Assembly (NCBI GenBank): GCA_028694645.1 | Contig: JAQVKM010000004.1 | Location: forward strand, 79,365 to 143,364 | DNA from: Bacilli bacterium | Lineage (GTDB): Bacteria > Bacillota_I > Bacilli_A > RF39 > UBA660 | Reading direction: 5' to 3' | DNA length: 64,000 nucleotides | Part shown: positions 7,856 through 63,637 of the stretch, one piece after another | Numbering within the stretch: the stretch's first letter is position 1 | How the letters are laid out: every line of letters begins with the position of its first letter | Program-made: the position numbers and the translations under genes | The notes under the pieces: generated by a model | What the model saw: only the letters and a program-made list of their open reading frames with translations | Told to the model about the DNA's origin: nothing | The model's database searches: none

Positions 7856-8181
7856 AGAACACCTTCCTTTTTCTAAGTAATATTATTATATCACTTCGTC
7901 AGATTTTTGTGTCCTAATACCTATTATAGATCCAAAAATAGATTCATTAGAAAAAGCAAAAAATGCTCCATGTATTTTTAATAACTGGGCTAACTTCTAT
8001 AAAGGTGAATTTGTTTCAAATACAATTTTAAATGCAAATTCATTTGATAAATTAATTAAATAAAAAATTACAATTTGTAAAATAGCCTAGATAACTTTTT
8101 AGATACAAATATTTGAAAACGAGTTATAAAATTGATATAATATAAATCAAATATAAATAGAAATTTGGCGGGAGATAATTT

Positions 8182-8433
8182 ATGGAAGATAAATTAATAT
8201 TACTTAATAATATTGATAAAGTACATACTACAAAAATGGGTATTAATAGAATTAAGAAAAATCTTGAATTAGATAGTAATGATGTCATTGAATACTGTAA
8301 AAATAAAGTTTTAGATAAAGGTTGCAATATATATAAAAAAGGAAAAAATTGGTATTGTGAAATCGATAATACAAAGATAACAATCAATTCATATAGCTAT
8401 ACAATTATAACAGCACATAAATTTAAAGGGTAA
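8182..8433 (+). CDS. DUF3781 family protein
   Basis: 83 aa. NIDKVHTTKMGINRIKKNL...KGKNWYCE...SYTIITAHK matches my recollection of the DUF3781 pattern. Confidence 0.55.
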   Translation: MEDKLILLNNIDKVHTTKMGINRIKKNLELDSNDVIEYCKNKVLDKGCNIYKKGKNWYCEIDNTKITINSYSYTIITAHKFKG

Positions 8434-8508
8434 AAATAAGATATTTTAAAATAAATTTTACATTATTATTTATTATTACATGATATAATGTAGCTAGGAG
8501 ATGATAGT

Positions 8509-8922
8509 ATGGGCAATAGAATGAACAAAGAAGAATTAATTGAATTGATTAAGACTTTAAAAATCGATAAAGAAGAATTTTGGGTTATATCTTCTGGAGC
8601 TTTAGTTTTAAGAGACATCTTTCCAAATGCTGGTGACTTAGATATAGCGGTTACAAACAAAGGTTTAGAACAATTAAAAAACAATTATAATTTAATTTTG
8701 AAAGATAATGGTTTTTACATTGTAAATGAAATGGTTGAATGTGTTTGTAATGGTGAAAAACAAAATTTACAATATCAGCCAGAAAAGGCAGGAGACTATT
8801 ATGTTCAAAATATAAATGAATATTTAAACTATTTGAAATCAAGTTCTAGAGAAAAAGATAAATCGAGAATTCCAATTGTTGAAGCATATATTGAAGAACA
8901 AAAAATAACTTATAATAAATAA
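8509..8922 (+). CDS. nucleotidyltransferase-fold protein, Lnu/LinA-like (possible lincosamide/aminoglycoside nucleotidyltransferase)
   Basis: 137 aa. FWVISSGALVLRDIFPNAGDLDIAV resembles the LnuA/LnuC FWVDGGWAVD...HDIDI motif. Confidence 0.45.
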   Translation: MGNRMNKEELIELIKTLKIDKEEFWVISSGALVLRDIFPNAGDLDIAVTNKGLEQLKNNYNLILKDNGFYIVNEMVECVCNGEKQNLQYQPEKAGDYYVQNINEYLNYLKSSSREKDKSRIPIVEAYIEEQKITYNK

Positions 8923-8930
8923 AATGAAAT

Positions 8931-8970
8931 AACTCGCAAACCAATATAAATAAAAGGCGTGCGAGTTTTA
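8931..8970 (+). terminator. putative terminator (ACTCGCA..TGCGAGT plus T-run)
   Basis: Same AACTCGCAAAC stem start as the secA terminator. Confidence 0.4.
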
Positions 8971-9075
8971 ATTTTATATATTGATATTTTATAAAAAATA
9001 TTAAGTAGATAAAATTAGCATACTTTACTAAATTACATTTTTAATATATAATTTGGTTATGAGGTTGTGATATTT

Positions 9076-10311
9076 ATGCCAGCATGCAAAACACATGAAG
9101 CAATAGCTAGAATAATAAACAAAGATTATAATATGGACGACATTTTATTAAGAGTTGGATCTGTTGCTCCTGATTGTTGGAGAAACGCAAAAGAATTTGG
9201 TTTTGAAGACAAATATTTAAGTCATTTTTGGGATTTTAGAAAATCAGGTATAGCAAATGATTATGATGAGTTTTATTTGAAATATTATAACGAAATAAAT
9301 AATCCATTTTATTTTGGATATTTATTACATTTAATCACTGATCAATATTGGAAAACTTATATTGATCCAAAATATGAAATAACGATAAATGGAATTAAAG
9401 GTTATAAATTAAGAGATGGAAGTTTTAAAGAAAATATAAAGGGAGAGTATTTTTATTATCATGATGATTCTATTTTACAGGTTCTTTTAGCTAATCATTT
9501 TGATTTAGGAGAATTACCAATTAATCAAGATGATTTAGCTAATTTTAAATGTAATATAGATGAATTAGATTTAACAGGGCTATTTGGAGAAAATTGTACA
9601 TTGGATTTTGCCAATAACTTTAAAAAACAAAAATTTAATGAAACATCACAAATTTTTGATTTAGACGTAGTTATAAAAGATCTATTCAAAACCTGCGATT
9701 TTATAAAAAAAGAGATAAAAAGACTTGAATTGATGAAAATTAAATATGATCAAAGCATTAAAATAGCTATTGATATAGATGATACAATGTTATCAACAAC
9801 GGAATTGCAAAGTTATTATGAGAATGTATTTCTAAATGAAAATCCTCAATACACAAGAAGTGATTTAGATTGGGGAAAAGAAGGATGTATTAAATTTTGG
9901 GATAAGTATAGGCCATTAATTGCATTTGGTAGTCCAAAAGAAAATGCAGATAAGGCTATAAAATGGTTTAAAGGAAAAGGCTATTTAACTGATGCATTAT
10001 CAGCTCGCCCGTTAAAAAATTATGCTCCATTAAAATCTGACTTAGTTCATCACTTGGATAAAAATGGATTATGCGTTGATCACATATATTTAGGATTTCA
10101 TTCAAAATCACAATTTTTAAAAGATCACAATTATGATATATTAATTGATAATGATATTAAAAATGTTGAACAAGCAAATTATGTAGGTGTAAGTGGCATT
10201 TTATATGGAGAATATAATCCAAATTATTTAGGATATCAAACGAATGATTGGGAAGAAATGCCTTTTTTAGTCCAAAAAATCATTAATAATAAAATAAAAC
10301 AATTGCAATGA
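9076..10311 (+). CDS. two-domain protein: N-terminal metal-dependent hydrolase-like domain fused to C-terminal HAD-family (5'-nucleotidase-like) domain
   Basis: C-terminal half has the HAD motif I AIDIDDTM. N-half has His/Asp clusters (HLITDQYW). GAGG RBS 11 nt before the ATG at 9076. Confidence 0.5.
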   Translation: MPACKTHEAIARIINKDYNMDDILLRVGSVAPDCWRNAKEFGFEDKYLSHFWDFRKSGIANDYDEFYLKYYNEINNPFYFGYLLHLITDQYWKTYIDPKYEITINGIKGYKLRDGSFKENIKGEYFYYHDDSILQVLLANHFDLGELPINQDDLANFKCNIDELDLTGLFGENCTLDFANNFKKQKFNETSQIFDLDVVIKDLFKTCDFIKKEIKRLELMKIKYDQSIKIAIDIDDTMLSTTELQSYYENVFLNENPQYTRSDLDWGKEGCIKFWDKYRPLIAFGSPKENADKAIKWFKGKGYLTDALSARPLKNYAPLKSDLVHHLDKNGLCVDHIYLGFHSKSQFLKDHNYDILIDNDIKNVEQANYVGVSGILYGEYNPNYLGYQTNDWEEMPFLVQKIINNKIKQLQ

Positions 10312-19215: not shown

Positions 19216-19292
19216 GGGCGATTAGCTCAGTTGGTTAGAGCACCTGCCTTACAAGCAGGGGGTCATAGGTTCGAGTCCTATATCGCCCACCA
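19216..19292 (+). tRNA. tRNA-Val(TAC)
   Basis: Cloverleaf with anticodon loop CTTACAA. CCA is encoded. Confidence 0.9.
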
Positions 19293-19296
19293 TTTT

Positions 19297-19372
<76 letters not shown>

Positions 19373-19379
19373 TTATTTT

Positions 19380-19463
19380 GGAAGGGTAGCGAAGAGGTTA
19401 AACGCGGCAGACTGTAAATCTGTTCCTTCGGGTTCGATGGTTCGAATCCATCTCCTTCCACCA
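19380..19463 (+). tRNA. tRNA-Tyr(GTA)
   Basis: Anticodon loop CTGTAAA. Long variable arm. CCA end. Confidence 0.9.
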
Positions 19464-19475
19464 TAATTTTTTTAT

Positions 19476-19551
19476 TGCCTCGTAGCCAAGTGGTAAGGCA
19501 CCACACTTTGACTGTGGCATTTCGCTAGTTCGAATCTAGCCGAGGCAGCCA
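19476..19551 (+). tRNA. tRNA-Gln(TTG)
   Basis: Anticodon loop CTTTGAC. CCA end. Confidence 0.85.
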
Positions 19552-19576
19552 TTTTGAAATATTTAAATAATAATAT

Positions 19577-19652
19577 GTCTCGTTAGCTCAGCCGGTAGAG
19601 CATCTGACTTTTAATCAGAGGGTCGTGAGTTCGAATCTCGCACGAGACACCA
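19577..19652 (+). tRNA. tRNA-Lys(TTT)
   Basis: Anticodon loop CTTTTAA. CCA end. Confidence 0.9.
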
Positions 19653-19655
19653 GAT

Positions 19656-19744
19656 GCCTGAGTGGCGAAATTGGTAGACGCACAGGACTTAAAATCCTGC
19701 GAGAGTCAAATCTCGTGCCGGTTCAAGTCCGGCCTTAGGCACCA
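19656..19744 (+). tRNA. tRNA-Leu(TAA)
   Basis: Anticodon loop CTTAAAA. Long variable arm. CCA end. Confidence 0.9.
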
Positions 19745-19756
19745 ATATGAATATAA

Positions 19757-19778
19757 TCGAACAAATATGTTCGGTTTT
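19757..19778 (+). terminator. terminator after first tRNA block
   Basis: CGAACAaatatgTTCG stem followed by GTTTT. Confidence 0.5.
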
Positions 19779-19832
19779 ATTTTGTTAATTTTAATAATGA
19801 ATAAAAAAAATATAAAAAATTAATAAAATCTA

Positions 19833-19861
19833 TTGAAAATATATAAAATAACTGATATAAT
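19833..19861 (+). promoter_or_regulatory. promoter TTGAAA-17-TATAAT (extended TGn) for second tRNA block
   Basis: Consensus hexamers ~45 nt upstream of tRNA-Ser. Confidence 0.55.
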
Positions 19862-19908
19862 CATATACGTACTCGTAAATCTTTATATTTTCGAGATTAC
19901 AATTATAT

Positions 19909-19997
19909 GGAGAAATACCCAAGTGGTTGAAGGGTCCGGTCTTGAAAACCGGTAGGTCGGAAACGGCGCTAGGGTTCGAATCCCTATTTCTCCGCCA
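19909..19997 (+). tRNA. tRNA-Ser(TGA)
   Basis: Anticodon loop CTTGAAA. Long variable arm. CCA end. Confidence 0.9.
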
Positions 19998-20005
19998 TCT
20001 AATAT

Positions 20006-20082
<77 letters not shown>

Positions 20083-20085
20083 AAT

Positions 20086-20161
20086 GGTCCCGTAGTGTAG
20101 CGGTTATCACGTCTGCCTGTCACGCAGAAGATCGCGAGTTCGATTCTCGTCGGGACCGCCA
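20086..20161 (+). tRNA. tRNA-Asp(GTC)
   Basis: Anticodon loop CTGTCAC. CCA end. Confidence 0.9.
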
Positions 20162-20170
20162 TTTATTTTT

Positions 20171-20246
20171 GGCTCTGTAGCTCAGTCGGTAGAGCAAGGG
20201 ACTGAAAATCCCTGTGTCGATGGTTCGATTCCATTCGGAGCCACCA
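20171..20246 (+). tRNA. tRNA-Phe(GAA)
   Basis: Anticodon loop CTGAAAA. CCA end. Confidence 0.9.
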
Positions 20247-20357
20247 TTTTATAAGAAAAGAACAATAAGTTCACTAAAAATATATTAAATAAGATTCCAA
20301 TAATGATTGTTGGTTTTTTTATTAAAAAAAATAAATTTAGAAAATTTTAAAAAAATA

Positions 20358-20386
20358 TTGCTAAAACAATAATATTGTGGTAATAT
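20358..20386 (+). promoter_or_regulatory. promoter TTGCTA-17-TAATAT with extended TG for tRNA-Arg/Pro
   Basis: Hexamers at the correct spacing ~40 nt upstream of tRNA-Arg. Confidence 0.5.
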
Positions 20387-20426
20387 TATACTTGTATTTG
20401 TTGAGTTTTCTCAACAATAAAGTATC

Positions 20427-20503
20427 GCGCTCGTAGCTCAGCTGGATAGAGTGTTTGGCTACGAACCAAAAGGTCAGGGGTTCGAATCCCTTCGAGCGCA
20501 CCA
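20427..20503 (+). tRNA. tRNA-Arg(ACG)
   Basis: Anticodon loop CTACGAA. CCA end. Confidence 0.9.
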
Positions 20504-20514
20504 TAATAATTTTT

Positions 20515-20591
20515 CGGGATGTGGCTCAACTTGGTAGAGCACTTGGTTTGGGACCAAGGGGTTGCAGGTTCAAATCCTGTCATCCCGACCA
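20515..20591 (+). tRNA. tRNA-Pro(TGG)
   Basis: Anticodon loop TTTGGGA. CCA end. Confidence 0.9.
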
Positions 20592-50504: not shown

Positions 50505-51711
50505 AAATTTTTTTTGGAATATGATAGGCTCAACATTTAATGCATTTAATTCACTGTTTTTTATGGTTGTTGTAATAAGAATCAATGGCAGTGCTGATGC
50601 TGGTGTTTTTACATATTCATATTCAGTAGCTTGCCTCTTATATTATATTGGTATATATTTTGGAAGAACCTATCAAGTTACAGATACAAAAAAAGATTTC
50701 AGTGATAAAGATTATATATTCAATAGGTATATATCCATTTTTATAATGGTTATAATTTCAATAATATTTGTTGTAATAATGAAATTTGATAATTATAAAT
50801 CTTTAATTTTAATTTTATTAACTATTTATAGGGCAGTTGATGCATTAGCTGAAGTTTATTATGGTATTCTTCATAAAAATGAAAAATTGTATCTAGTTGG
50901 AATTTCTATGACATTAAAATCTTTATGTGGTTTAATATTATTTATTTTGGGTGATATTATATTCAAAAATATAATTTTAGCGTGTATATTTACCATATTA
51001 TTTAATTTAATTATTACAATTTTGAATGACAAAAGAAGGAGCAAAAAATATTTAGAAGAAGGAAATTCAAATTTTAAAAGTATTACAAGCATATATTTAA
51101 AATCATTTTTTGTATTTGCCTTTTCATTCTTGTCAATGTATATAGTGTCTGTTCCAAAATATTCAATGGTTAATTTACCGAATGAAGAACAGGCAATATT
51201 TGGAATAATAATGATGCCGGCAACTTTTGTTAGTTTGTGTGGATATTATATTATTAATCCATATTTAAATAAATTAACAGAATTTTATAAGAATAAAGAT
51301 AAAATAAATTTTGAATTGATTGTAAAAAAAATTTTACTATTTGTATTAGGAATTGGGGTGTTTGCTGAATTATGTGTATTTTCAGTAGCTATACCAATAT
51401 TAAATTTTGTGTTTAAAATAAATTTAAATGACTTCAAATTACAATTAGGAATAATAATTTTAGGTGCTGTTTTCTACACGGCAGGATTGGTATATTCAAA
51501 TGTATTGACAATATTCAGAAAGACCTTTGTTCAATTTATTATTTATGGTATAACTGCACTTGTTGGACTAGCTGTTTCTGTTGTTCTAATTTCTAATTAT
51601 TATCTGTTTGGAGGGACAATGTCATATTTTATTATAATGTCATTGCAATTATTATTGTATACAATAGTAACTAAAAGTATTATGAAAGAGGTTTTTAAAA
51701 ATGATAGATAA
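50494..51711 (+). CDS. Wzx-like oligosaccharide flippase (MOP superfamily)
   Basis: 405 aa with ~12 TM helices. Confidence 0.55.
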
Positions 51712-52285
51712 GATTGACTTAGTATTAAATGAACAAATAAACAATTTGAATGAATTGAAAAATAATAACTATAAAAATAAAATTATGGAAATCAGCAATT
51801 TGATTATTAATGCCATGAAAAATGGTAATAAAATTTTGATAGCTGGTAATGGTGGTTCAGCTGCAGATGCACAACATTTCGCAGCGGAATTAGTTGGAAG
51901 ATTTTGTTTAGAAAGAAAGGGACTACCGGCTATTGCATTAACAACCGATTCTTCTATTCTAACTTGTATGGGTAATGATTATGGATATGATTTTGTCTTT
52001 TCAAGACAAATTGAGGCACTTGGTAAAGCTGGTGATATTTTTATAGGAATATCAACAAGTGGAAATTCTAAAAATATTATTAATGCAACTTTAGAAGCAA
52101 ATAAAAATGGCATTATTTCAATATCTATGACAGGAAAAGATGGTGGAATAATTAAAGAAATAAGTGACTTTAATTTAAATTTTAATTATAAAGAAACAGC
52201 TAGAGTTCAAGAACATCACATAATGTCTATTCATTTAATTTGTGAGGCTGTAGAAAAAAAAATGAAGATATTTCAGGAGGGATAA
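51701..52285 (+). CDS. gmhA: D-sedoheptulose-7-phosphate isomerase
   Basis: SIS domain [19 protein letters not shown]...GISTSGNS. Confidence 0.8.
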
Positions 52286-52286
52286 A

Positions 52287-53516
52287 ATGAAACAAGGAAA
52301 TTATTTATCCAATAATTTTAGAAAAATATATGGTGTATTTCAGAAAAATTTATTCCTAAGAGATTTTAAAAATATTCTTTATTATGTTGATTTAATAATT
52401 CTGTTATTTATTGTTAAACCCAAAAAAATAAAATCACAAAAAAAGAAAATATTGGTTATTTATAATATGGCTTTTGGTGATGGCGTTATTTGGAGATGCA
52501 CATCTGTCCATTTAAACAAATTATACCCAAAGGAAAATTATGAGATAACTTTACTTTGTCAAAAAGGAATAAATAAATTGTATGAGAATGATGATACTTA
52601 CGATCATATTATTCCACTTGATTTTACGAAGGGAACTATTAGTTTGCCAGAGCGAATTAAAAACTTTAAAAAAATAAGAGAAGTATACTATGATTTAGTA
52701 ATTGACCCAATAGGAATAGTTGAGTGTACTACAAATGTTCTAATGACTAGAGCAGCTGTTGGAACAGAAAAAATTGGTTTAATTGATAAAGATGTTATTA
52801 TTCACTGTCCAAGACACATGACAAAAAAAATATATAATAAAATTATTGAAGTCAACGGCAAAGGAGTTTCTTTAATTGATTATTATGCAATATTTTTAAA
52901 GAAATTATCAAATGATAAATTAGATTTAAATGTTGGATATGAAAAAATAAAAACATATCCAACTAAAATAAAATTGCCAGAAAAATATTTTGTTGTATTT
53001 CCAAGTGCAAGTATGAAATTAAAAAGATGGGATATCTCCAAATACGTTGAATTATCTGGAAAAATACACGATAAAACAAAAATGCCAATTGTTTTAGTTG
53101 GTACAGTAGCTGATAAAGAAGCGATAGATCAATTCAAAAAGAATTTAAAAGTTCCCTTTGTTGATTTAGTTCAAAAAACAAATTTAAATGATTATATAAA
53201 TATAATTAAAAAGGCAGAGCTTGTTATAACTAATGACACTAGTGCTTATCATATCGCAGTAATTGAAGAAACCCCGGTTGCTATAATAACTGGTGGCTAT
53301 ACATATGATAGATATGTTGAATACAAATTTGAAAGAATGAATGAATTTAAAAAACCATGTATCATTGTAAATGAAATGAGCTGCTTCAATTGTGGAAATA
53401 GATGTCCTAATTTAAAAAAAGAGAACAGGAATTGGCCATGTTTAGAAAATATAACAGTTGATTTTGCTTGGAAAAAAATAGAAAAAATGATAAACGATGG
53501 AAAAATAGGAGAGTAA
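52287..53516 (+). CDS. glycosyltransferase family 9 (heptosyltransferase-like)
   Basis: C-terminal ITNDTSAYHIAV...ITGG matches the GT9 donor-binding motif. Confidence 0.6.
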   Translation: MKQGNYLSNNFRKIYGVFQKNLFLRDFKNILYYVDLIILLFIVKPKKIKSQKKKILVIYNMAFGDGVIWRCTSVHLNKLYPKENYEITLLCQKGINKLYENDDTYDHIIPLDFTKGTISLPERIKNFKKIREVYYDLVIDPIGIVECTTNVLMTRAAVGTEKIGLIDKDVIIHCPRHMTKKIYNKIIEVNGKGVSLIDYYAIFLKKLSNDKLDLNVGYEKIKTYPTKIKLPEKYFVVFPSASMKLKRWDISKYVELSGKIHDKTKMPIVLVGTVADKEAIDQFKKNLKVPFVDLVQKTNLNDYINIIKKAELVITNDTSAYHIAVIEETPVAIITGGYTYDRYVEYKFERMNEFKKPCIIVNEMSCFNCGNRCPNLKKENRNWPCLENITVDFAWKKIEKMINDGKIGE

Positions 53517-53517
53517 T

Positions 53518-54966
53518 ATGAATGTTGAAAAACTACGCGCAATAAATGATAAAAATATATTAGTTTTCGGTGATTATATGGTAGATAAGTATATTCTTGG
53601 AGATGTTAGCAGAATATCACCAGAAGCACCAGTTCCTGTTATACAAATGAGAGAAGAACAATGTAAAATTGGTGGAGCTGGCAATGTGATAAATAATATT
53701 ATTTCATTAGGTGCAAACGTAAAAGCTCTTGGTTGTGTTGGGGAAGATGAAGCCGGAAACTTCATAATTGATAATTTCAATAAAAATGATATTGATATTT
53801 TGCATTTTCGAAAAATGTCAAATATCAAGACTATATGTAAAACAAGAATTGTATCAAAAAAACAACAATTTTTAAGAATAGATGAGGAAAACATAAAGGA
53901 ATTACCATATGAATACTATGATTATTTAAATCAAAATATAGAAGATATTTTTAGTGAAATAAATCTTTTAATAATATCAGATTATGCTAAAGGAGCAGTT
54001 GTTGAAAAAACATCACAATTATTAATAAGAAAAGCCAAAGAAAAAAATATTCCTATAATTGTGGATCCTAAAGGCAATGACTACAGTAAATATTTTGGAG
54101 CAACAATTGTAACTCCGAATGTTAAAGAATTAAGTGACGTAGTTAAAAAAGAACTTTCAACAGAAGAGTCAATTATTATTGAAAGTGGTAAGTTATGTGA
54201 AAATTTTGGTTTTGACTATGTTATGTTGACGCGATCAGAAAAAGGTATAAGTTCAATTAATAAGGATTACGAGAAAAAAGATTTTCCTGCTGTTGCAAAG
54301 GAAATTATTGATGTTTCTGGAGCTGGAGATACAGTTGTTGCCACCATGGCATTAACAATGACATTGGGATTTTCAATTGAAGAAATGTGTAGAATTGCAA
54401 ATATAGCTGCATCAATCGTTGTATCAAAATTTGGAACTAGCACAGTGAATCTAAATGAATTAGTAAGCAATATATCAATTACAAGAGAGTTTAAATTATT
54501 AACTTCTGAAACAGCTGATTATATAATTGAATACTTAAGAGAAAATGGAAAAAAAATAGTTTTTACAAATGGGTGTTTTGATTTATTACATGCAGGTCAT
54601 TTATCCTCATTTAAAAAAGCCAAAGAATTTGGCGATGTTTTGATTGTTGCAGTCAATAGCGATTTATCTATAAAGAGAATAAAAGGAGAATTACGACCAA
54701 TAATAAAGGAAAAAGATCGTATTGAAATGCTTTGTGCATTAGAATGTATCGATTATGTGATTTTAATGGAAGATGATAATCCAATTGAATTATTAAAAAA
54801 ATTAAAACCAGATGTATCCGTTAAAGGAAAAGATTGGGAGAATAAAAATGTAGTTGAAAAACCAGTAATAGAAGAATATGGTGGAAAAATAGAATTTATA
54901 GATTTAGAATCAGGAATATCTACAACTACAATTATTGAAAGAATATTAAGAGCATATAATGAATAA
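53518..54966 (+). CDS. hldE: bifunctional D-beta-D-heptose 7-phosphate kinase / heptose 1-phosphate adenylyltransferase
   Basis: N-terminal pfkB-like kinase domain. C-terminal cytidylyltransferase-like FTNGCFDLLHAGH. 482 aa. Confidence 0.85.
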   Translation: MNVEKLRAINDKNILVFGDYMVDKYILGDVSRISPEAPVPVIQMREEQCKIGGAGNVINNIISLGANVKALGCVGEDEAGNFIIDNFNKNDIDILHFRKMSNIKTICKTRIVSKKQQFLRIDEENIKELPYEYYDYLNQNIEDIFSEINLLIISDYAKGAVVEKTSQLLIRKAKEKNIPIIVDPKGNDYSKYFGATIVTPNVKELSDVVKKELSTEESIIIESGKLCENFGFDYVMLTRSEKGISSINKDYEKKDFPAVAKEIIDVSGAGDTVVATMALTMTLGFSIEEMCRIANIAASIVVSKFGTSTVNLNELVSNISITREFKLLTSETADYIIEYLRENGKKIVFTNGCFDLLHAGHLSSFKKAKEFGDVLIVAVNSDLSIKRIKGELRPIIKEKDRIEMLCALECIDYVILMEDDNPIELLKKLKPDVSVKGKDWENKNVVEKPVIEEYGGKIEFIDLESGISTTTIIERILRAYNE

Positions 54967-55486
54967 AGTTATATTTTTAGATAGAGATGGAACTATTAAT
55001 TTTGATTCTGGTTATTTACATGAAATAGAAAAATTTAAGTTTTTACCGGGGGTTATTGATGGATTAAAATCTCTTCAAAATATGGGATTTAAGCTTATTA
55101 TTGTTACAAACCAATCTGGAATTGAAAGAGGATTTTTTAATGAATTTGACTATAAAATCTTAACTGATTATATGCTAAATGAATTAGAAAAAGAAGGAAT
55201 TAAAATAGAAAAGGTATATTATTGTCCTCATTTTTTTAGTAATTGTAATTGTCGAAAACCAAAATTAGAACTTTTTTATAAGGCAAAGGATGAATATGAT
55301 ATAGATTTTTCAAAGTCATATGCCATAGGAGATAAGAAAAGGGACTTGTCGATTTGCGAAAAAGAAAAAACAAAAGGAATACTTATTTCCTCTGAATTTG
55401 AGTCAATACAACTACAAGGGAATATAGCATTAGTCAAAAATTTTAAAGAAGCTGTTTTGCTTATACAAAAAAATGAAACAAATTAA
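54959..55486 (+). CDS. gmhB: D-glycero-D-manno-heptose 1,7-bisphosphate phosphatase
   Basis: HAD motif FLDRDGTIN. 175 aa. Confidence 0.8.
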   Translation: MNKVIFLDRDGTINFDSGYLHEIEKFKFLPGVIDGLKSLQNMGFKLIIVTNQSGIERGFFNEFDYKILTDYMLNELEKEGIKIEKVYYCPHFFSNCNCRKPKLELFYKAKDEYDIDFSKSYAIGDKKRDLSICEKEKTKGILISSEFESIQLQGNIALVKNFKEAVLLIQKNETN

Positions 55487-55504: not shown

Positions 55505-55545
55505 ACCACATGGTAATATAAATATTTACAAATGTGGTTTTTATT
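55505..55545 (+). terminator. terminator hairpin after gmhB
   Basis: CCACATGGTAA..TTACAAATGTGG stem followed by a T-run. Confidence 0.5.
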
Positions 55546-55579
55546 TATTTTTTATTGTATAATATGCATAGGTGGTAAT

Positions 55580-57496
55580 GTGAAAAAGAAATATAAATTT
55601 TTATTATTTGCTATTTTATTAATAGTGTTGAAACAAATTTTAATTAATAATTTGCCTATTTATGCAATTGGCAATAGTTCATGTGATGATCAATTAATGA
55701 TTATGATGGAGGCAAATTTATTAAAATTAAACTGGTTAGGAGATTTTAATAGTTTAACTTTAGTTAAAGGAATTTTTTTTCCATTTTTTCTTGCCGTTAA
55801 TGCCTTTTTGGGTATATCATATATAAATGGAATTACACTTTTTTACTCAATTGCATGTCTGATTTTTGTATATAGTATTAGAAAAATATTTCATAAAGAA
55901 TGGCCTATTTATTTAATATTTTTATTATTGCTATTTAATCCAATTATGTTTTCATTGGAAACAGCACAAAGGGTTTATAGGAATTCATTAACTCCGGGTC
56001 AAGTTTTATTAATTATGGCATCTATATTTGCTATGTTTATTAATAGAAAAAATAACAAGAATATATTATGGTGGTCTATATTTGGAGGAATATCATTAGC
56101 GACATTTTGGAATACTAGAGAAGATGCTATATGGATATTACCTTTTATTTTAGTTTTTACTATGATAATGATAGTAGAACATATTGTTACAAATAAAAAT
56201 AAATTTCAATTAAAAAAAATAATAATATTTATATTACCATTAATAATTCTTCAAACATTTAATATTGGTATTTCAACTATTAATTATATGAAATATGGTG
56301 TTTTTACGAGAGTTGATTTGAGTAATACTAATTTTAGTGAAGCTATTGAGGCGATATATTCTGTTCCAACTTATGATAATATAGAATATACTTCTGTTAC
56401 TAAAGAAAAACTTGAAAGACTATATGATATTAGTCCATCACTTAATAGCATTTCAGAAGAATTAAATGCTATTTCCATTTCAATGGATCAAAATGGTAGA
56501 ATTCCGAGTGATGAGCAAATAGAAGATGGATGGTTTTGGTGGGCACTAAGATTTGCAGCTGAAGCAAAAGGCTATTATGAGAATGCTATTAAAGCGGAGA
56601 ATTTTTTTGGAGATATAGTTAATGAAATAGAAACTGCACAAAAAAATGGTTTGATTGAAAAGCAGTCTACTATGCCATCAGCATTGATGAGCCCTTGGCG
56701 AGAAGGTTATTTAAAAAAATTATTTAATACTAGTCTTGAAATAATAAAATATACAAACAATTATACTGATGTTAATGCAATTGCTATGGAAAGTGTTGGT
56801 AGTTATAATTCAATTAAATTTTTCGAAATAGCTACCAATGATACAGCAATATATCCAGCTCAACTTTCAAATATTGAAGGATGGTATAGATATAATTATG
56901 AAGATTATTATATAATAGCAAATGTTAATAATGAAGCTTTAAAAAGAATAAATTGTAAAAAACAAGAAAATTGTGAAATAAATATAGATTTTAATATTAG
57001 CCAAAGTGATGAAACAATTAGTTTGAAAATATTTAATATAAATGATAGTTTGATTAAACAAATAAATATAGTTGACGATATAACATCTGAAATTGGAGAT
57101 AATTATTCTTATAATATTAATTTATCAAAAATTACTGATCCAAACATGCTTCAAAAAGAATTTTTGAATGTTTATGTTGGACGACTAAATATAATAGGAC
57201 TTCTTTATAAAAAAACAGGAATAATTTGTGGGATAATAGGACTTGTTTCATATATTGGAGTTACCATTATTGCTTTATTTAAAAATAAAAAAATTATAGA
57301 TAAATGGTTAATTTTGAGTAGTATTTTGGCTACATATTTGGTATTATGTATAGGAGTTTCATATAATCATATTTCATCTTGCCATTCCATTAGCTCTATG
57401 TATTTATCTGCTGCCTATTCATTAATAATAATTTTTTGGTCAATGTCTATATTTGTTTTGATTGATTATATAAAAGAAAAAAAATTAAATAATTAA
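55580..57496 (+). CDS. large polytopic membrane protein (possible GT-C-type glycosyltransferase)
   Basis: AGGTGG RBS then GTG. N-terminal ~10 TM helices, a soluble middle and a C-terminal TM pair. Confidence 0.45.
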   Translation: MKKKYKFLLFAILLIVLKQILINNLPIYAIGNSSCDDQLMIMMEANLLKLNWLGDFNSLTLVKGIFFPFFLAVNAFLGISYINGITLFYSIACLIFVYSIRKIFHKEWPIYLIFLLLLFNPIMFSLETAQRVYRNSLTPGQVLLIMASIFAMFINRKNNKNILWWSIFGGISLATFWNTREDAIWILPFILVFTMIMIVEHIVTNKNKFQLKKIIIFILPLIILQTFNIGISTINYMKYGVFTRVDLSNTNFSEAIEAIYSVPTYDNIEYTSVTKEKLERLYDISPSLNSISEELNAISISMDQNGRIPSDEQIEDGWFWWALRFAAEAKGYYENAIKAENFFGDIVNEIETAQKNGLIEKQSTMPSALMSPWREGYLKKLFNTSLEIIKYTNNYTDVNAIAMESVGSYNSIKFFEIATNDTAIYPAQLSNIEGWYRYNYEDYYIIANVNNEALKRINCKKQENCEINIDFNISQSDETISLKIFNINDSLIKQINIVDDITSEIGDNYSYNINLSKITDPNMLQKEFLNVYVGRLNIIGLLYKKTGIICGIIGLVSYIGVTIIALFKNKKIIDKWLILSSILATYLVLCIGVSYNHISSCHSISSMYLSAAYSLIIIFWSMSIFVLIDYIKEKKLNN

Positions 57497-59897: not shown

Positions 59898-60089
59898 ATG
59901 AAAGAAGCTGCTGGAGAAGCAAATATGACTGTAGTAACTATCATCTTAATAGGGATTATAGTTGCAGTTGTAACACCAATAATCAACAGTATGATGACAA
60001 GCACAGAAAAAAAAGCTTGTTGTATGAACAATGGTGGAACTTGGGAAAATGGTGGATGTGTTGGAGCAAGTTCTGAATGTGAAGAATAA
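59898..60089 (+). CDS. small membrane-anchored Cys-rich peptide (pilin-like?)
   Basis: AGGTGG RBS. 63 aa. Short charged N-term, one TM helix, then C-terminal KKACCMNNGGTWENGGCVGASSECEE. Confidence 0.45.
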   Translation: MKEAAGEANMTVVTIILIGIIVAVVTPIINSMMTSTEKKACCMNNGGTWENGGCVGASSECEE

Positions 60090-60106
60090 TTAAGAGGTGT
60101 TAGATT

Positions 60107-60559
60107 ATGAGACAAGCTATTGGAAGTGTACCAATGTACAATATAATAATGGTTTTTATAGTAATAACTTTCGGTTTCTTGTCTGCAACCTTAAGTTATA
60201 TGAAAGCTTTTAAAGTGAATGGTAGAATTGCAAAAGCATTAGAAAATTATGAAGGCTATAATATTCTTTCAAATAACGAAATAACTGAAACTTTATCTAA
60301 TATAGGATATAAAATAGGAGATGCAAGTAGTTATTCTTGTCCAACAAGAGATAACAAAGCAGCCGTTCAAGCTATAACAGGTAAAAATCATGTTTATTGT
60401 TTGTATGAATTAGATTATTATCAAAATGGAACAACAAAAACAAGATATTTTAATTATGGTATTGTAAGCTATATTTTTATAGATCTTCCTATAATTGGTG
60501 AAACAATAAAAGTTCCAGTTTATTCAGAAACAGAAAAAATATTTAGATTTTCTGCTTAA
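60107..60559 (+). CDS. N-terminally anchored secreted protein, TadE/pseudopilin-like (paralog 1)
   Basis: 150 aa with N-terminal TM helix. Conserved CP.R.N...YC.Y pair shared with the next ORF. Confidence 0.5.
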   Translation: MRQAIGSVPMYNIIMVFIVITFGFLSATLSYMKAFKVNGRIAKALENYEGYNILSNNEITETLSNIGYKIGDASSYSCPTRDNKAAVQAITGKNHVYCLYELDYYQNGTTKTRYFNYGIVSYIFIDLPIIGETIKVPVYSETEKIFRFSA

Positions 60560-60574
60560 TTAGGAGTTGATTAA

Positions 60575-61033
60575 ATGAAAGAATCTATAGGAAATGCCTT
60601 TATAATGGGAATAGTTATAACATTTATAATTATTTTCATGATTTTTTTTGCAAGTTCATTAGCATACACTAAGGCTTTTAAAGCAAAAAACAAAATAGTT
60701 GAAATAATCGAAAAATATGATGATATTTTAAGTCAAAGTGCATCAGAAAATTCTGTTTTAATTAATGCAGTTGAAGCAGAAATAAATGAGACTTTGTCTG
60801 GTATGGGATATCGTATTAGCCCTACTTCTAATAATTGTCCATCTAGAAATAATGTTTCAGCTGTTAGAAAACAAGAAACAGCAAATTATGAATATTGTGT
60901 ATACAAATATACAACAACTAAAGGAAATTATTATGGAGTAACAGCTTATATGTATTTTGAAATTCCTATAATAGGGGTTGGACTTAGATTTCCAGTTTAC
61001 GGAGAAACTAAGATAAGTGGAATTTTAGGTTAG
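60575..61033 (+). CDS. N-terminally anchored secreted protein, TadE/pseudopilin-like (paralog 2)
   Basis: 152 aa. Same architecture and Cys pair as the previous ORF. Confidence 0.5.
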   Translation: MKESIGNAFIMGIVITFIIIFMIFFASSLAYTKAFKAKNKIVEIIEKYDDILSQSASENSVLINAVEAEINETLSGMGYRISPTSNNCPSRNNVSAVRKQETANYEYCVYKYTTTKGNYYGVTAYMYFEIPIIGVGLRFPVYGETKISGILG

Positions 61034-61043
61034 GAGGAATTAG

Positions 61044-62048
61044 ATGAACGTAATTATTGCTAACAAATATCAATCGATGCTAGAAACATTAGAAATTGAT
61101 GTTATAAAAAAACTAGAAGGTGAATTTGAAGTTGAAGATATAATAAATCAATTTCAAAATTTTTTCTTTCAAAGAATGATTTTGGATATCACAGCTATTA
61201 AAGATTATCGTGATATTAAAACCTTACAAAAATTATCTATTTCATTAGATATGGATAAAGTTATATTATTATTAGACGATTCATCTGAGGGAACTTCTAA
61301 TGATTATTTATCAAAATTGATTTCAATGGGAATATATAATTTTACTAAGAACATAGAAGGAATAATGTATTTATATAATAATCCTAATTCATATCGTGAT
61401 GTTGCACATATACAACAATTAGATATGACATCAGGAGAAGAAGTTATTATAGAAAAATATGAACAAGCAGTAGTTGGAACTAGAATTATTGGTATTAAAA
61501 ATGTTACTAAACAGTCTGGTGCAACAACATTATCTTATATGATAAAAAATCAGTTAAAACAAAATTATTCAGTAGTGGCTATAGAAGTAAATAAAAGTGA
61601 CTTTAGATATTTTGGTGATAAATCACTTATATCTACAACTAATTTTGAAATAGGAAATCAAATTTCAAAATATAGTGATAATGATGTTATTATTGTAGAT
61701 ATAAATGATTCAAAACAAGCAGAAGATTTATGTCATGATGTTATTTATTTAGTAGAACCATCTATCATTAAATTAAATAAATTGATGCTAGTTAATAGTG
61801 GAGCATTTAAAGATTTAGCTAAAAGAGATGCAAAAGTAGTTTTAAATCAAAGCTTATTAAATTCAAAAGATGTTTTAGATTTTGAATATGAGTCTGGAGC
61901 TAAAGTATTTTATAATATGCCACCACTTGATGAAAGAGAAAAAAGTATATTCGCTTTAAATTCGTTTTTAGTTAGATTAGGATTTAATAAGCAAAAAGAA
62001 GAACAACAAGAAAAAAAGAAATCGCTTTTAAGCTTATTTAGCAAATAA
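61044..62048 (+). CDS. TadZ/CpaE-like protein: receiver-like N-domain plus degenerate ParA/MinD-like ATPase domain
   Basis: IGIKNVTKQSGATTLS is a degenerate deviant Walker A. The N-terminal ~120 aa have a REC-like pattern. Confidence 0.4.
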   Translation: MNVIIANKYQSMLETLEIDVIKKLEGEFEVEDIINQFQNFFFQRMILDITAIKDYRDIKTLQKLSISLDMDKVILLLDDSSEGTSNDYLSKLISMGIYNFTKNIEGIMYLYNNPNSYRDVAHIQQLDMTSGEEVIIEKYEQAVVGTRIIGIKNVTKQSGATTLSYMIKNQLKQNYSVVAIEVNKSDFRYFGDKSLISTTNFEIGNQISKYSDNDVIIVDINDSKQAEDLCHDVIYLVEPSIIKLNKLMLVNSGAFKDLAKRDAKVVLNQSLLNSKDVLDFEYESGAKVFYNMPPLDEREKSIFALNSFLVRLGFNKQKEEQQEKKKSLLSLFSK

Positions 62049-62124
62049 AAGTTGACTTTTTTTATTAAATAAAGTATTATATGATTGTAATGTTTAATTG
62101 TTTTAAACAAAGAGGAGGTTTATT

Positions 62125-62487
62125 ATGTTAGATATTTTAACTTGTACAGTTGGTGGAGTAGGAATGAGCAATGAAGCTTATGTAATAATTCCAAAAATTA
62201 CTGTTATGGTAGTTAATGTTATTAAAATCGTTATACCAATAATGTTAATAATATTTGGTATGCTTGATTTAGCTAAAGCTGTAATGACTAACGATGAAAA
62301 AGAAATGAAGGGTGCTCAAACAAAATTAATGAAAAGAGCAATCTATGCCGTTTTAGTATTCTTAGTTATCGCAATTGTACAATTATTGTTTGGCGCATTA
62401 GCTGGTTCTGCAGATAGTGATAGTGTTGATGGAAGTACTATTCAAGGATGTATCAGTTGTTTTGTTTCACAAACAAAAGATTGCTAA
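62125..62487 (+). CDS. membrane protein with TM-(D.K..K.A...LMKR)-TM module and Cys-rich tail
   Basis: AGGAGG RBS. The module is shared with the next two ORFs. Confidence 0.45.
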   Translation: MLDILTCTVGGVGMSNEAYVIIPKITVMVVNVIKIVIPIMLIIFGMLDLAKAVMTNDEKEMKGAQTKLMKRAIYAVLVFLVIAIVQLLFGALAGSADSDSVDGSTIQGCISCFVSQTKDC

Positions 62488-62584
62488 TATTAATATAGAA
62501 ATTATATGGAATTTATTCCATATTTTTTTTTATTATGATATAATGTATTTGTAAAAAAATATTTTTTAGCGTGGAGTGATATTT

Positions 62585-63637
62585 ATGAAAAAAATTATGT
62601 ATACATTTATATTAGTACTATTAGGATTTACATCTTTTAGTCATGTGAAAGCAGCGGCAATGTGTTCAACAAGGAATATAGATAGTTCAAAATGGTCTTA
62701 TGTTGAGACGATAACAAATAACAATCAACAATATTCAACAGTTGAAACATCAACTGAAAAAAGGGTTTGTTGTACAACAGGTTCTGGACAGACTTTACAA
62801 TATTATTGTGACAAATATTCTATTGTAGAAAATTATACTGCTCCTGAAGTTGAGGAAGAAATTACTTCCAATGATTTAGGAACATATGATATGCAATGTA
62901 ATACTATTAAGGGATTAGATTCAGAATGGAAATTTGATAAATGTGTTTGGTATTATCCTGCTTCTGCACCTTCTAATAAAGAAGTAATGGGTGTAGAAAA
63001 AGTATACTGTACAGTAGTTGGCTCAGGAGCAACTCAAAGAAGTCAATGTGATTATTTTACTTGGGAAGGGGATTTTGATTTTACTCAAAAACCAAGTAAT
63101 GCTATAGATACACCATTTGGAGCATGTGGAAATGTTGGTAATGATTGGACTTTTAATTATGCTATAACAAGTTCAACAAACATAACAACACAAACAGATA
63201 ATAGTAAAGTATGTTGTAATCAAACAGGAACTGGTGCAGGGACAACATACTTGTGTGATGTTTATGTAGATACTGAATATTATAATGATAAAAATGGTGA
63301 TGAAGATGAAGATATAGATACTTCTGTATGTTCAATTTTAGGTGGAGAAAACAGTGATACAATATTAATTATTAGAGAAATATATAATTATTTTACATGG
63401 ATCATCCCAGTATTAATAGTTGTTTTAAGTATTTTAGATTTTGTTAAAGTAATAGGCTCTGGGGATGACAAAGACTTAAAAGCTGCTGGAAACAATTTAA
63501 TAAAAAGAATTATAGTTGGGGTTGCTTTTTTCCTTGTTCCTTTATTAGTTAAATTATTTATTAATATTAGTGGAATTACTGAAAATATTACTGATGGAGA
63601 TAGTATTGTTGCAATAATAAGTTGCGTTTTAAAATAG
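62585..63637 (+). CDS. secreted Cys-rich repeat protein with C-terminal TM-(DDKDLKAAGNNLIKR)-TM module
   Basis: Signal peptide. Two copies of a VCC..G.G...Y.CD.Y repeat. C-terminal module as in the flanking ORFs. Confidence 0.5.
   Translation: MKKIMYTFILVLLGFTSFSHVKAAAMCSTRNIDSSKWSYVETITNNNQQYSTVETSTEKRVCCTTGSGQTLQYYCDKYSIVENYTAPEVEEEITSNDLGTYDMQCNTIKGLDSEWKFDKCVWYYPASAPSNKEVMGVEKVYCTVVGSGATQRSQCDYFTWEGDFDFTQKPSNAIDTPFGACGNVGNDWTFNYAITSSTNITTQTDNSKVCCNQTGTGAGTTYLCDVYVDTEYYNDKNGDEDEDIDTSVCSILGGENSDTILIIREIYNYFTWIIPVLIVVLSILDFVKVIGSGDDKDLKAAGNNLIKRIIVGVAFFLVPLLVKLFINISGITENITDGDSIVAIISCVLK

Follow-up and report, generated by a model that had tools for sequence, protein, structure and literature searches.

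A cysteine-repeat protein with a pilin-like hairpin beside type IV secretion genes of a Bacilli genome: a candidate contact subunit

What role is played by a secreted, Cys-rich protein that is encoded among the genes of a type IV secretion system (T4SS) in a member of the Bacilli? This question is raised by a gene at positions 62585–63637 (+ strand) of a 64-kb stretch of DNA (64,000 nucleotides; hereafter the window) from the metagenome-assembled genome (MAG) of an uncultured Bacilli bacterium. The product of this gene joins an N-terminal ectodomain of three Cys repeats to a C-terminal hairpin resembling the T4SS pilin family PF18895, and we consider it, with a probability of about 0.5, to be a bimodular contact subunit that is anchored in a monoderm T4SS by its pilin module. 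VirB2-type pilins are, according to reviews, absent from Gram-positive T4SSs with the sole exception of the Patescibacteria (PMC4027160, PMC12102498, PMC12857230), and at the present locus PF18895-type hairpin genes lie within a T4SS of a Bacilli MAG. The architecture of the protein, its genomic setting and the explanations that compete for it are discussed below.

Architecture of the Cys-repeat protein

The open reading frame (ORF) list and its translation give a product of 350 amino acids (aa) from the ATG at 62585, which follows a GGAG sequence by 8–9 nucleotides (nt), to a stop codon at 63637. A preceding sequence-only reading of the window had delimited the same ORF, but the 353 aa that it reported hold only if the count begins at an upstream GTG (62576). 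An identical 350-aa product is on record in an NCBI Bacilli MAG (PHN42_03975), where it is labelled 'hypothetical protein'. The gene contains the following features.

62585–63637, + strand: whole gene, bimodular (signal peptide, three Cys repeats, acidic spacer, T4SS pilin-like hairpin); ORF list and translation
62585–62653, + strand: predicted Sec-type signal peptide, aa 1–23 (MKK, hydrophobic core, VKA/AAM); hydropathy and V-x-A in the family alignment
62660–62824, + strand: Cys repeat 1, aa 26–80 (C27, C62, C63, C75); self-alignment z-scores, 20-repeat alignment and AlphaFold2 (AF2)
62894–63064, + strand: Cys repeat 2, aa 104–160 (C105, C120, C142, C155); self-alignment and 20-repeat alignment
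63122–63271, + strand: Cys repeat 3, aa 180–229 (C181, C210, C211, C224); self-alignment and 20-repeat alignment
63272–63322, + strand: acidic spacer TEYYNDKNGDEDEDIDT, aa 230–246; sequence
63329–63331, + strand: Cys249, just ahead of helix 1, invariant in every aligned pilin module; alignments A1 and A4
63359–63559, + strand: match to PF18895 (T4SS_pilin), aa 259–325, with helix, short polar loop (GSGDDKDLK...KR) and helix; Pfam, 29.8 bits
63623–63625, + strand: Cys347, C-terminal tail, kept in the family; alignments

The V-x-A site at the end of the Sec-like N-terminus is kept in homologues, and cleavage is predicted after VKA. The signal peptide of the sequence-only reading is thus borne out, and the protein is predicted to be exported, not entirely cytoplasmic. 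It carries no class III signal peptide, leaders of that kind being found instead on three upstream genes. Two other modes of surface attachment were considered and rejected, viz. a lipoprotein, because there is no lipobox and the Cys falls 3–4 residues past the V-x-A site, and a sortase substrate, because the sequence contains no LPXTG.

The protein contains 14 Cys, fewer than the approximately 18 previously counted. The two Cys motifs described in the sequence-only reading are present verbatim (KRVCCTTGSGQTLQYYCDKY, aa 59–78; SKVCCNQTGTGAGTTYLCDVY, aa 207–227), as is its acidic stretch (DKNGDEDEDIDT, aa 235–246); however, a middle copy had been overlooked (EKVYCTVVGSGATQRSQCDYF, aa 138–158), so that there are three copies, and the unit is not ~25 aa long but ~55–78 aa, with four Cys and a beginning at an upstream Cys and Trp. 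Its consensus is C-x7-11-W ... (V)CC-x2-G-x-G ... C-D-x-Y. When the repeats are aligned locally in pairs, z is 6.5, 5.2 and 3.4 (500 shuffles each), and the Cys density of the ectodomain is 5.8% vs 1.2% in 17 large ORFs of the window. Repeat 2 is a variant in which the CC pair lacks its second Cys and an extra Cys stands at Trp+5. No Pfam family covers the repeat region in this protein or in the family members, which were likewise scanned.

An exhaustive phmmer search with the ectodomain against 1.84 billion representative proteins has identified nine further homologue clusters (E 7e-19 to 5e-5), six of them full-length (signal peptide, one to three repeats, linker and PF18895-type hairpin) and three of them fragments holding repeats only. 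Loss of the Cys spacing in homologues had been named as an observation that would tell against the sequence-only reading; this objection fails because the Cys pattern is kept. Three Cys positions never vary across 20 aligned repeats (the N-terminal Cys, the leading Cys of the CC pair and the Cys of C-D-x-Y), and 18 of these repeats retain the second Cys of the CC pair as well. It is missing from the middle repeats of the 350-aa protein and of homologue P0007, both of which gain a Cys five residues past the Trp, and a third case of such relocation in a middle repeat is found in a protein of locus L015. Since the Cys is relocated and never swapped for His or Asp, these changes resemble disulfide rewiring. 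In the lineage of homologue P0011, 25 variants on >100 contigs differ at few sites and never at a Cys, and this near-invariance rules out a general hypervariability of the ectodomain. All the members of the repeat family that were found are annotated as 'hypothetical protein' or are unnamed. Further searches added little: word-indexed protein searches returned matches sharing the hairpin module only (full protein as query), nothing (repeat profile) and just 7 proteins (family alignment); a genome scan with a narrower alignment returned two loci, both without the Cys repeat; and five of six matches from a degenerate-DNA scan of metagenomes were due to chance, L015 alone being real.

AF2 modelling of a single repeat (repeat 1, from the 20-repeat alignment; pLDDT 85.3, pTM 0.66) predicts a three-stranded antiparallel sheet, or beta-meander, the strands coinciding with the Trp, the CC pair and C-D-x-Y. 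The repeat gave no match to any specific solved fold. In the strand register of the model the first Cys of the CC pair faces the Cys of C-D-x-Y, and a cross-strand disulfide is therefore proposed between them; a second disulfide in each repeat, proposed from the same model, would join the N-terminal Cys to the remaining Cys of the CC pair. The twelve repeat Cys would in this way form two disulfides per repeat.

The C-terminal part of the protein matches PF18895 over profile positions 4–71 of 71 (29.8 bits, E 6.6e-7; gathering threshold 26.6 bits). Hydropathy indicates two hydrophobic helices at about aa 266–294 and 306–329, and AF2 places helices at aa 258–292 and 295–328 (pLDDT about 80), joined by a short, polar loop of net basic charge and followed by an acidic tail (aa 329–350) that includes Cys347. 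Taken with the signal peptide, the positive-inside rule assigns the loop to the inner side of the membrane and the repeats, with Cys249 and Cys347, to the outer side, so that the predicted topology is N-out, loop-in and C-out. Relatives carry extensions at either end of the hairpin (N-terminal in the 350-aa protein; C-terminal in proteins P0004-6 and in locus L005), which supports the placement of both ends outside, where a disulfide between Cys249 and Cys347 would join them. Seven of the ten family sequences hold this module, the other three being fragments without it, and PF18895 is matched at E <= 0.1 by five of the seven. What the sequence-only reading called the 'shared C-terminal membrane module' can thus be refined to a T4SS pilin-like hairpin.

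The 120-aa protein encoded directly upstream is a paralogue of the module (32% identity, E 7e-13), with a Cys ahead of helix 1, a Cys in the tail and a weak PF18895 match of its own (16.4 bits). Its gene has a strong GAGGAGG ribosome-binding site and a promoter-like site at 62052–62080, and is followed by an RNA hairpin (-13.2 kcal/mol, z = -3.4) and, beyond it, by TGATATAAT at about 62535–62543. This hairpin, which is a possible terminator or attenuator, contains too few G-C pairs to be picked up in a consensus terminator scan. The strong ribosome-binding site, the promoter-like site and the downstream hairpin fit an arrangement in which the 120-aa protein is a major and the 350-aa protein a minor subunit.

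62125–62487, + strand: short 120-aa paralogous pilin-like gene, candidate major subunit; 32% identity to the module
62504–62531, + strand: AT-rich hairpin ATATGGAA/TTCCATAT, then a T-run, between the 120-aa gene and the gene of the 350-aa protein; RNA fold

Among relatives of the hairpin, three (L015 6475–6993, L004 7795–8988 and L006 9566–9907) have sub-threshold matches to NF045849, NF045848 or NF045889 (12.6–17.8 bits, E 0.002–0.08). These weak matches to families from Mycoplasma integrative and conjugative elements (ICEs) hint at a wider hairpin superfamily of Bacilli and Mollicutes. The L004 relative is a 397-aa protein with a signal peptide and another ectodomain; its contig is labelled Muribaculaceae yet has sporulation genes, and may be mis-binned. 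In locus L005, from another Bacilli MAG, four pilin-module genes form an array (7901–10041; 158, 124, 177 and 135 aa); three of them have almost identical hairpins but differing Cys-containing C-terminal tails, and the array resembles the pilin arrays of Patescibacteria.

The secretion locus and exchange of the ectodomain

The window stops 363 nt past the gene, and downstream genes were therefore read in an overlapping 5-kb contig (L001) and in a syntenic 21-kb locus of a related species (L002). A VirB6/TrbL_4-like gene begins 12 nt past the gene of interest, and the order in L001 and L002 continues from this ~650-aa protein through a 106-aa TcpE/VirB3-like protein, a TraC-like protein, a VirB4 ATPase and wall hydrolases of the NlpC/P60 and glucosaminidase types to VirD4, a coupling protein whose gene is present in L002. 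The TrbL_4 match is weak in L001 and reaches 26.3 bits in the L002 orthologue (cut-off 27), and the L006 counterpart is on record as TrbL_4. The locus is a Gram-positive-type T4SS.

59898–61033, + strand: three prepilin-like genes (63, 150 and 152 aa) with leaders of the form MKE-x-x-G before a hydrophobic stretch, and paired Cys; sequences
61044–62048, + strand: 334-aa conserved gene between the prepilin-like and T4SS pilin genes; identity to L002 and L006
63649–64000, + strand: start of the VirB6/TrbL-like gene, running off the window end (652 aa in L001); L001 ORF and TrbL_4 match

The tie to a neighbouring locus suggested by the sequence-only reading is accordingly given a definite form, the gene being linked physically and evolutionarily to a Gram-positive-type T4SS with prepilin-like genes upstream. 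In L006–L008, from a more distant relative, and in L015, fusions of the Cys repeat to the pilin module are found at or <=2 kb from T4SS core genes (VirB6-like, VirB3/TcpE-like), and a short paralogous hairpin gene always adjoins the fusion gene (the present locus and L006). In L006–L008 the prepilin-like block is preceded by genes for an RcpC-like protein, a T2SSE ATPase and two membrane proteins (L006 2960–8459); together, the L006 block and these preceding genes make up a Tad-like module fused to the T4SS cluster. No T2SSE ATPase gene is found within the window. Each of the five proteins of the locus that are exported or lie in the membrane has an even number of Cys (4, 2 and 2 in the prepilin-like proteins, then 4 and 14), and all of these Cys lie in predicted external segments.

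Nucleotide homology between the window and L002 is unbroken from the heptose-pathway and glycosyltransferase genes into the T4SS locus (74–81% identity), and base composition shows no shift at the locus. The T4SS locus therefore looks vertically inherited in this lineage, its downstream end lying beyond view, and the same two observations, the first of which starts from chromosomal sugar-metabolism genes, rule out a recent ICE insertion. Genes for pyruvate:ferredoxin oxidoreductase (PFOR), pyruvate formate-lyase (PFL) and a D-Ala-D-Ala carboxypeptidase indicate that the host is an anaerobe that makes peptidoglycan.

Against this collinear background (74–85% nt identity in the flanks) the ectodomain stands out as a clean replacement. 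DNA identity between the window and L002 is 84.7% up to position 62607 and 75.6% from 63341 (blastn); the intervening 733 nt have no L002 counterpart, and an unrelated ectodomain-coding segment of 814 nt is found there instead, while the hairpin modules of the two genomes remain 72% identical.

62609–63340, + strand: segment without nucleotide similarity to L002, aa 9–252; blastn breakpoints 62607/63341 and protein comparison

Relatedness of the module and of the ectodomain is discordant across the family as a whole: the proteins with the closest hairpins (P0002 and P0003; 72% and 49% identity) have unrelated ectodomains, whereas the hairpins of proteins that share the Cys repeat are just 26–40% identical to that of the 350-aa protein. 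The positional orthologue in the distant L006, where neighbouring proteins are 28–48% identical, also has the Cys repeat. The repeat is on this account probably ancestral at this position and was probably replaced in the L002 lineage, and the ectodomain would represent an exchangeable cassette on a conserved anchor.

Proposed role and competing explanations

The reading that we favour, the contact subunit, would operate as follows. The Sec signal peptide would export the N-terminus, and the PF18895 hairpin would plug the protein into the T4SS, where it may assemble together with the 120-aa pilin, in the role of a minor subunit. The Cys-repeat domain would be displayed so as to touch the surface of a target cell, serving in mating-pair formation or host attachment, with each repeat stapled by two disulfides and the hairpin ends tied by Cys249 and Cys347; the protein would thus have the adhesin or tip role that had been suggested for it. 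If this is true, the protein opens a way to learn how monoderms with a wall locate T4SS partners when they have no LPXTG adhesins. A fuller picture, in which a lineage of walled, anaerobic Bacilli possesses a vertically inherited, chromosomal T4SS with a VirB2-type filament of short pilins that is decorated with, or tipped by, an exchangeable, disulfide-stapled Cys-repeat module and acts in concert with a neighbouring Tad-like pilus, is in our judgment unlikely; a conjugative-type pilus of this kind, bearing a modular adhesin pilin, would have no precedent among monoderms other than the Patescibacteria.

Several observations weigh against the contact-subunit reading. The PF18895 score is marginal, and profile comparisons give no link to pilins: the module alignment, compared by hhalign with three genuine VirB2/TrbC proteins from Ti-type plasmids, reached a probability of 0.2% (both profiles are shallow and might miss a remote homology), and a search of PDB sequences with the module profile returned no pilin, only noise from G protein-coupled receptors. 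Reviews record no VirB2-type pilus for a walled Gram-positive bacterium, and in Patescibacteria such a pilus is a proposal (PMC12857230). Packing a 25-kDa ectodomain into a filament may prove difficult, the searches turned up neither a binding partner nor an adhesin-type fold for the protein, the anaerobic host (PFOR, PFL) weighs on the proposed disulfides, and the L004 hairpin protein is encoded outside a T4SS locus, between spoIIGA-sigE and sigG-like genes near ftsZ.

An alternative that we regard as somewhat unlikely is that the protein is a membrane-anchored accessory or adhesin and no filament exists, the hairpin being an anchor or a channel-associated element of the T4SS and the Cys repeats reaching through the wall as a receptor or adhesin bound to the cell. 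Reviews describe Gram-positive T4SSs as using surface adhesins instead of pili (PMC4027160, PMC12857230), and this account would also suit the missing sequence-profile link to classical VirB2, the bulk of the ectodomain (about 226 aa) and the wall hydrolases of the locus, which imply a peptidoglycan layer to cross. However, a hairpin-only paralogue with strong expression signals next door is what one usually sees where a major subunit polymerises, and relatives have arrays of hairpin genes as in Patescibacteria (PMC12102498). It is highly improbable that the protein has no link to the T4SS at all and is a generic hairpin-anchored secreted protein which came to lie beside these genes by chance or operon drift: the related hairpin between sigE and sigG in another MAG and the marginal Pfam score would agree with this, but in three independent lineages the fusions lie directly upstream of VirB6-like and VirB3-like genes, accompanied by VirB4 or its TraC-like N-terminal part, and the paralogous short hairpin gene always adjoins.

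The exchange of the ectodomain raises a different alternative, in which the variable domain marks the surface for self/non-self recognition or exclusion and the T4SS avoids or selects partners by it, a function closer to surface or entry exclusion or to receptor specificity than to adhesion in general. The clean replacement between two species whose flanks are 74–85% identical and the discordance between module and ectodomain both speak for such a role, which we nevertheless consider improbable, because the near-invariance of the P0011 lineage and the retention of the ectodomain type in the distant L006 are not the rapid turnover expected of a specificity determinant. The repeat Cys could also bind a metal (e.g. 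structural zinc) in place of forming disulfides, which would make the ectodomain a metal-stabilised or metal-binding surface module. Four conserved Cys per repeat would suit this arrangement, and extracytoplasmic disulfides are less expected in an anaerobic host; but a lost Cys in variant repeats is offset by a new Cys on another strand and not by His or Asp, Cys counts are even in all exported proteins of the locus, the prepilin-like proteins have the classic two-Cys loop, and a vicinal CC pair has a poor chelating geometry, so that metal binding appears quite improbable.

Relation to known systems and further observations

The closest known parallel is provided by the VirB2-like pilin arrays (PF18895/PF04956) in T4SS loci of Patescibacteria (PMC12102498), including Southlakia epibionticum (PMC10633639). 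Both settings combine PF18895 hairpins with a monoderm, Gram-positive-type T4SS (VirB6, VirB3, VirB4 and wall hydrolases), and in both two or more divergent pilin paralogues lie beside the core genes on the chromosome. The present locus differs in its Bacilli MAG host, in the VirD4 of its syntenic relative and in the prepilin-like (Tad-type) genes that abut it, and a Cys-repeat ectodomain of 226 aa is not described for the Patescibacterial pilins (PMC12102498, PMC10633639).

The protein shares with VirB2, TrbC, TrwL and TraA a signal peptide, a two-helix hairpin with a short polar or basic loop and a gene position beside virB3/virB4-type genes. In contrast to them, it has no detectable sequence or profile similarity (the Pfam scan gave no PF04956 (TrbC/VirB2) match), its host lacks an outer membrane, and in its mature form it has about 326 aa vs about 70–100 aa in classical pilins, although the 120-aa paralogue has the expected size. 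TrbC/VirB2 pilins undergo head-to-tail cyclisation, which the Cys pair at the hairpin ends would mimic. Comparison of the full model with the PDB (Foldseek) gave no match at E <= 0.001, and tblastn of the hairpin module against 72,556 plasmids gave no match.

NCBIfam curates the 'Mbov_0395 family pilin-like conjugal transfer protein' (NF045849) and the MMCAP2_0566/Mbov_0396 families (NF045848, NF045889) of Mycoplasma ICEs, which are likewise hairpin proteins of conjugation loci in the class Bacilli (there wall-less), the longer families adding an extension. These families lack the Cys repeat, however, and matches of related modules fall far below the curated cut-offs; the 350-aa protein itself has no match to NF045849 or NF045848 (cut-offs 40 and 90 bits) at E <= 0.1.

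As in Streptococcus sanguinis PilB (PMC8179133), an adhesive or functional module appears grafted on a pilin, and in PilB such a minor subunit gives the filament its binding function. The analogy is functional and not homologous. PilB belongs to a different superfamily of filaments and has a class III signal peptide and one N-terminal helix, whereas the 350-aa protein has a Sec signal and a T4SS-type hairpin. The TrwL (VirB2) and TrwJ (VirB5) copies of the Bartonella Trw system (PMC12857230) are also variable, exposed T4SS subunits and are proposed to set target-cell specificity, but their variation takes the form of tandem paralogues of whole small pilins in a diderm, not of a large ectodomain cassette on a conserved hairpin. 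The ectodomain has no Pfam match to the helical bundle of VirB5/TraC and is predicted to consist of beta repeats; adhesins of the PrgB or aggregation-substance type are not indicated either, as the protein has no LPXTG and no Pfam adhesin domain and is predicted to be anchored via the hairpin.

The hairpin family is thus already known. What is new, as far as our searches extend, is the Cys repeat, its fusion to the hairpin and the setting in a T4SS of walled Bacilli with adjoining prepilin genes; a modular T4SS pilin-like design, with a four-Cys repeat on a conserved hairpin and another ectodomain in a sister species, is not described in the literature and databases searched. The collinearity of the flanks with those of a related species suggests that the hairpin trait is older or wider than thought, and the Cys repeat defines a small new domain family for annotation.

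Few genes of the locus are as conserved as the 334-aa gene between the prepilin-like and pilin genes (identity of 90% with L002 and 48% with L006; a 346-aa homologue in L005), and its product has no match in Pfam, NCBIfam or PDB. It occupies the place where a TadZ/CpaE-like protein might be expected. The 63-aa prepilin-like protein (59898–60089) ends in CC-x11-C-x6-C, and its CC-x11-C spacing is that of the Cys repeats; this spacing is kept in the L002 orthologue and absent in that of L006, and may be a coincidence. The VirB6/TrbL-like proteins of L001 (2332–4290) and L002 (11148–13097) are 66% identical over the first ~400 aa only, their charged, coiled-coil-like C-terminal 250 aa showing no match.

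Farther upstream, positions 55532–57496 encode a 654-aa polytopic membrane protein without a Pfam match, in place of which L002 has ~350 nt; within 13 kb, the window and L002 here differ for a second time in a surface-related feature. The locus is adjoined by heptose-type sugar-nucleotide genes at 51701–55486 (SIS isomerase, family 9 glycosyltransferase, PfkB kinase/cytidylyltransferase-type and HAD phosphatase), many glycosyltransferase genes lie farther upstream of these, and 12 tRNA genes are clustered on the + strand at 19216–20588.

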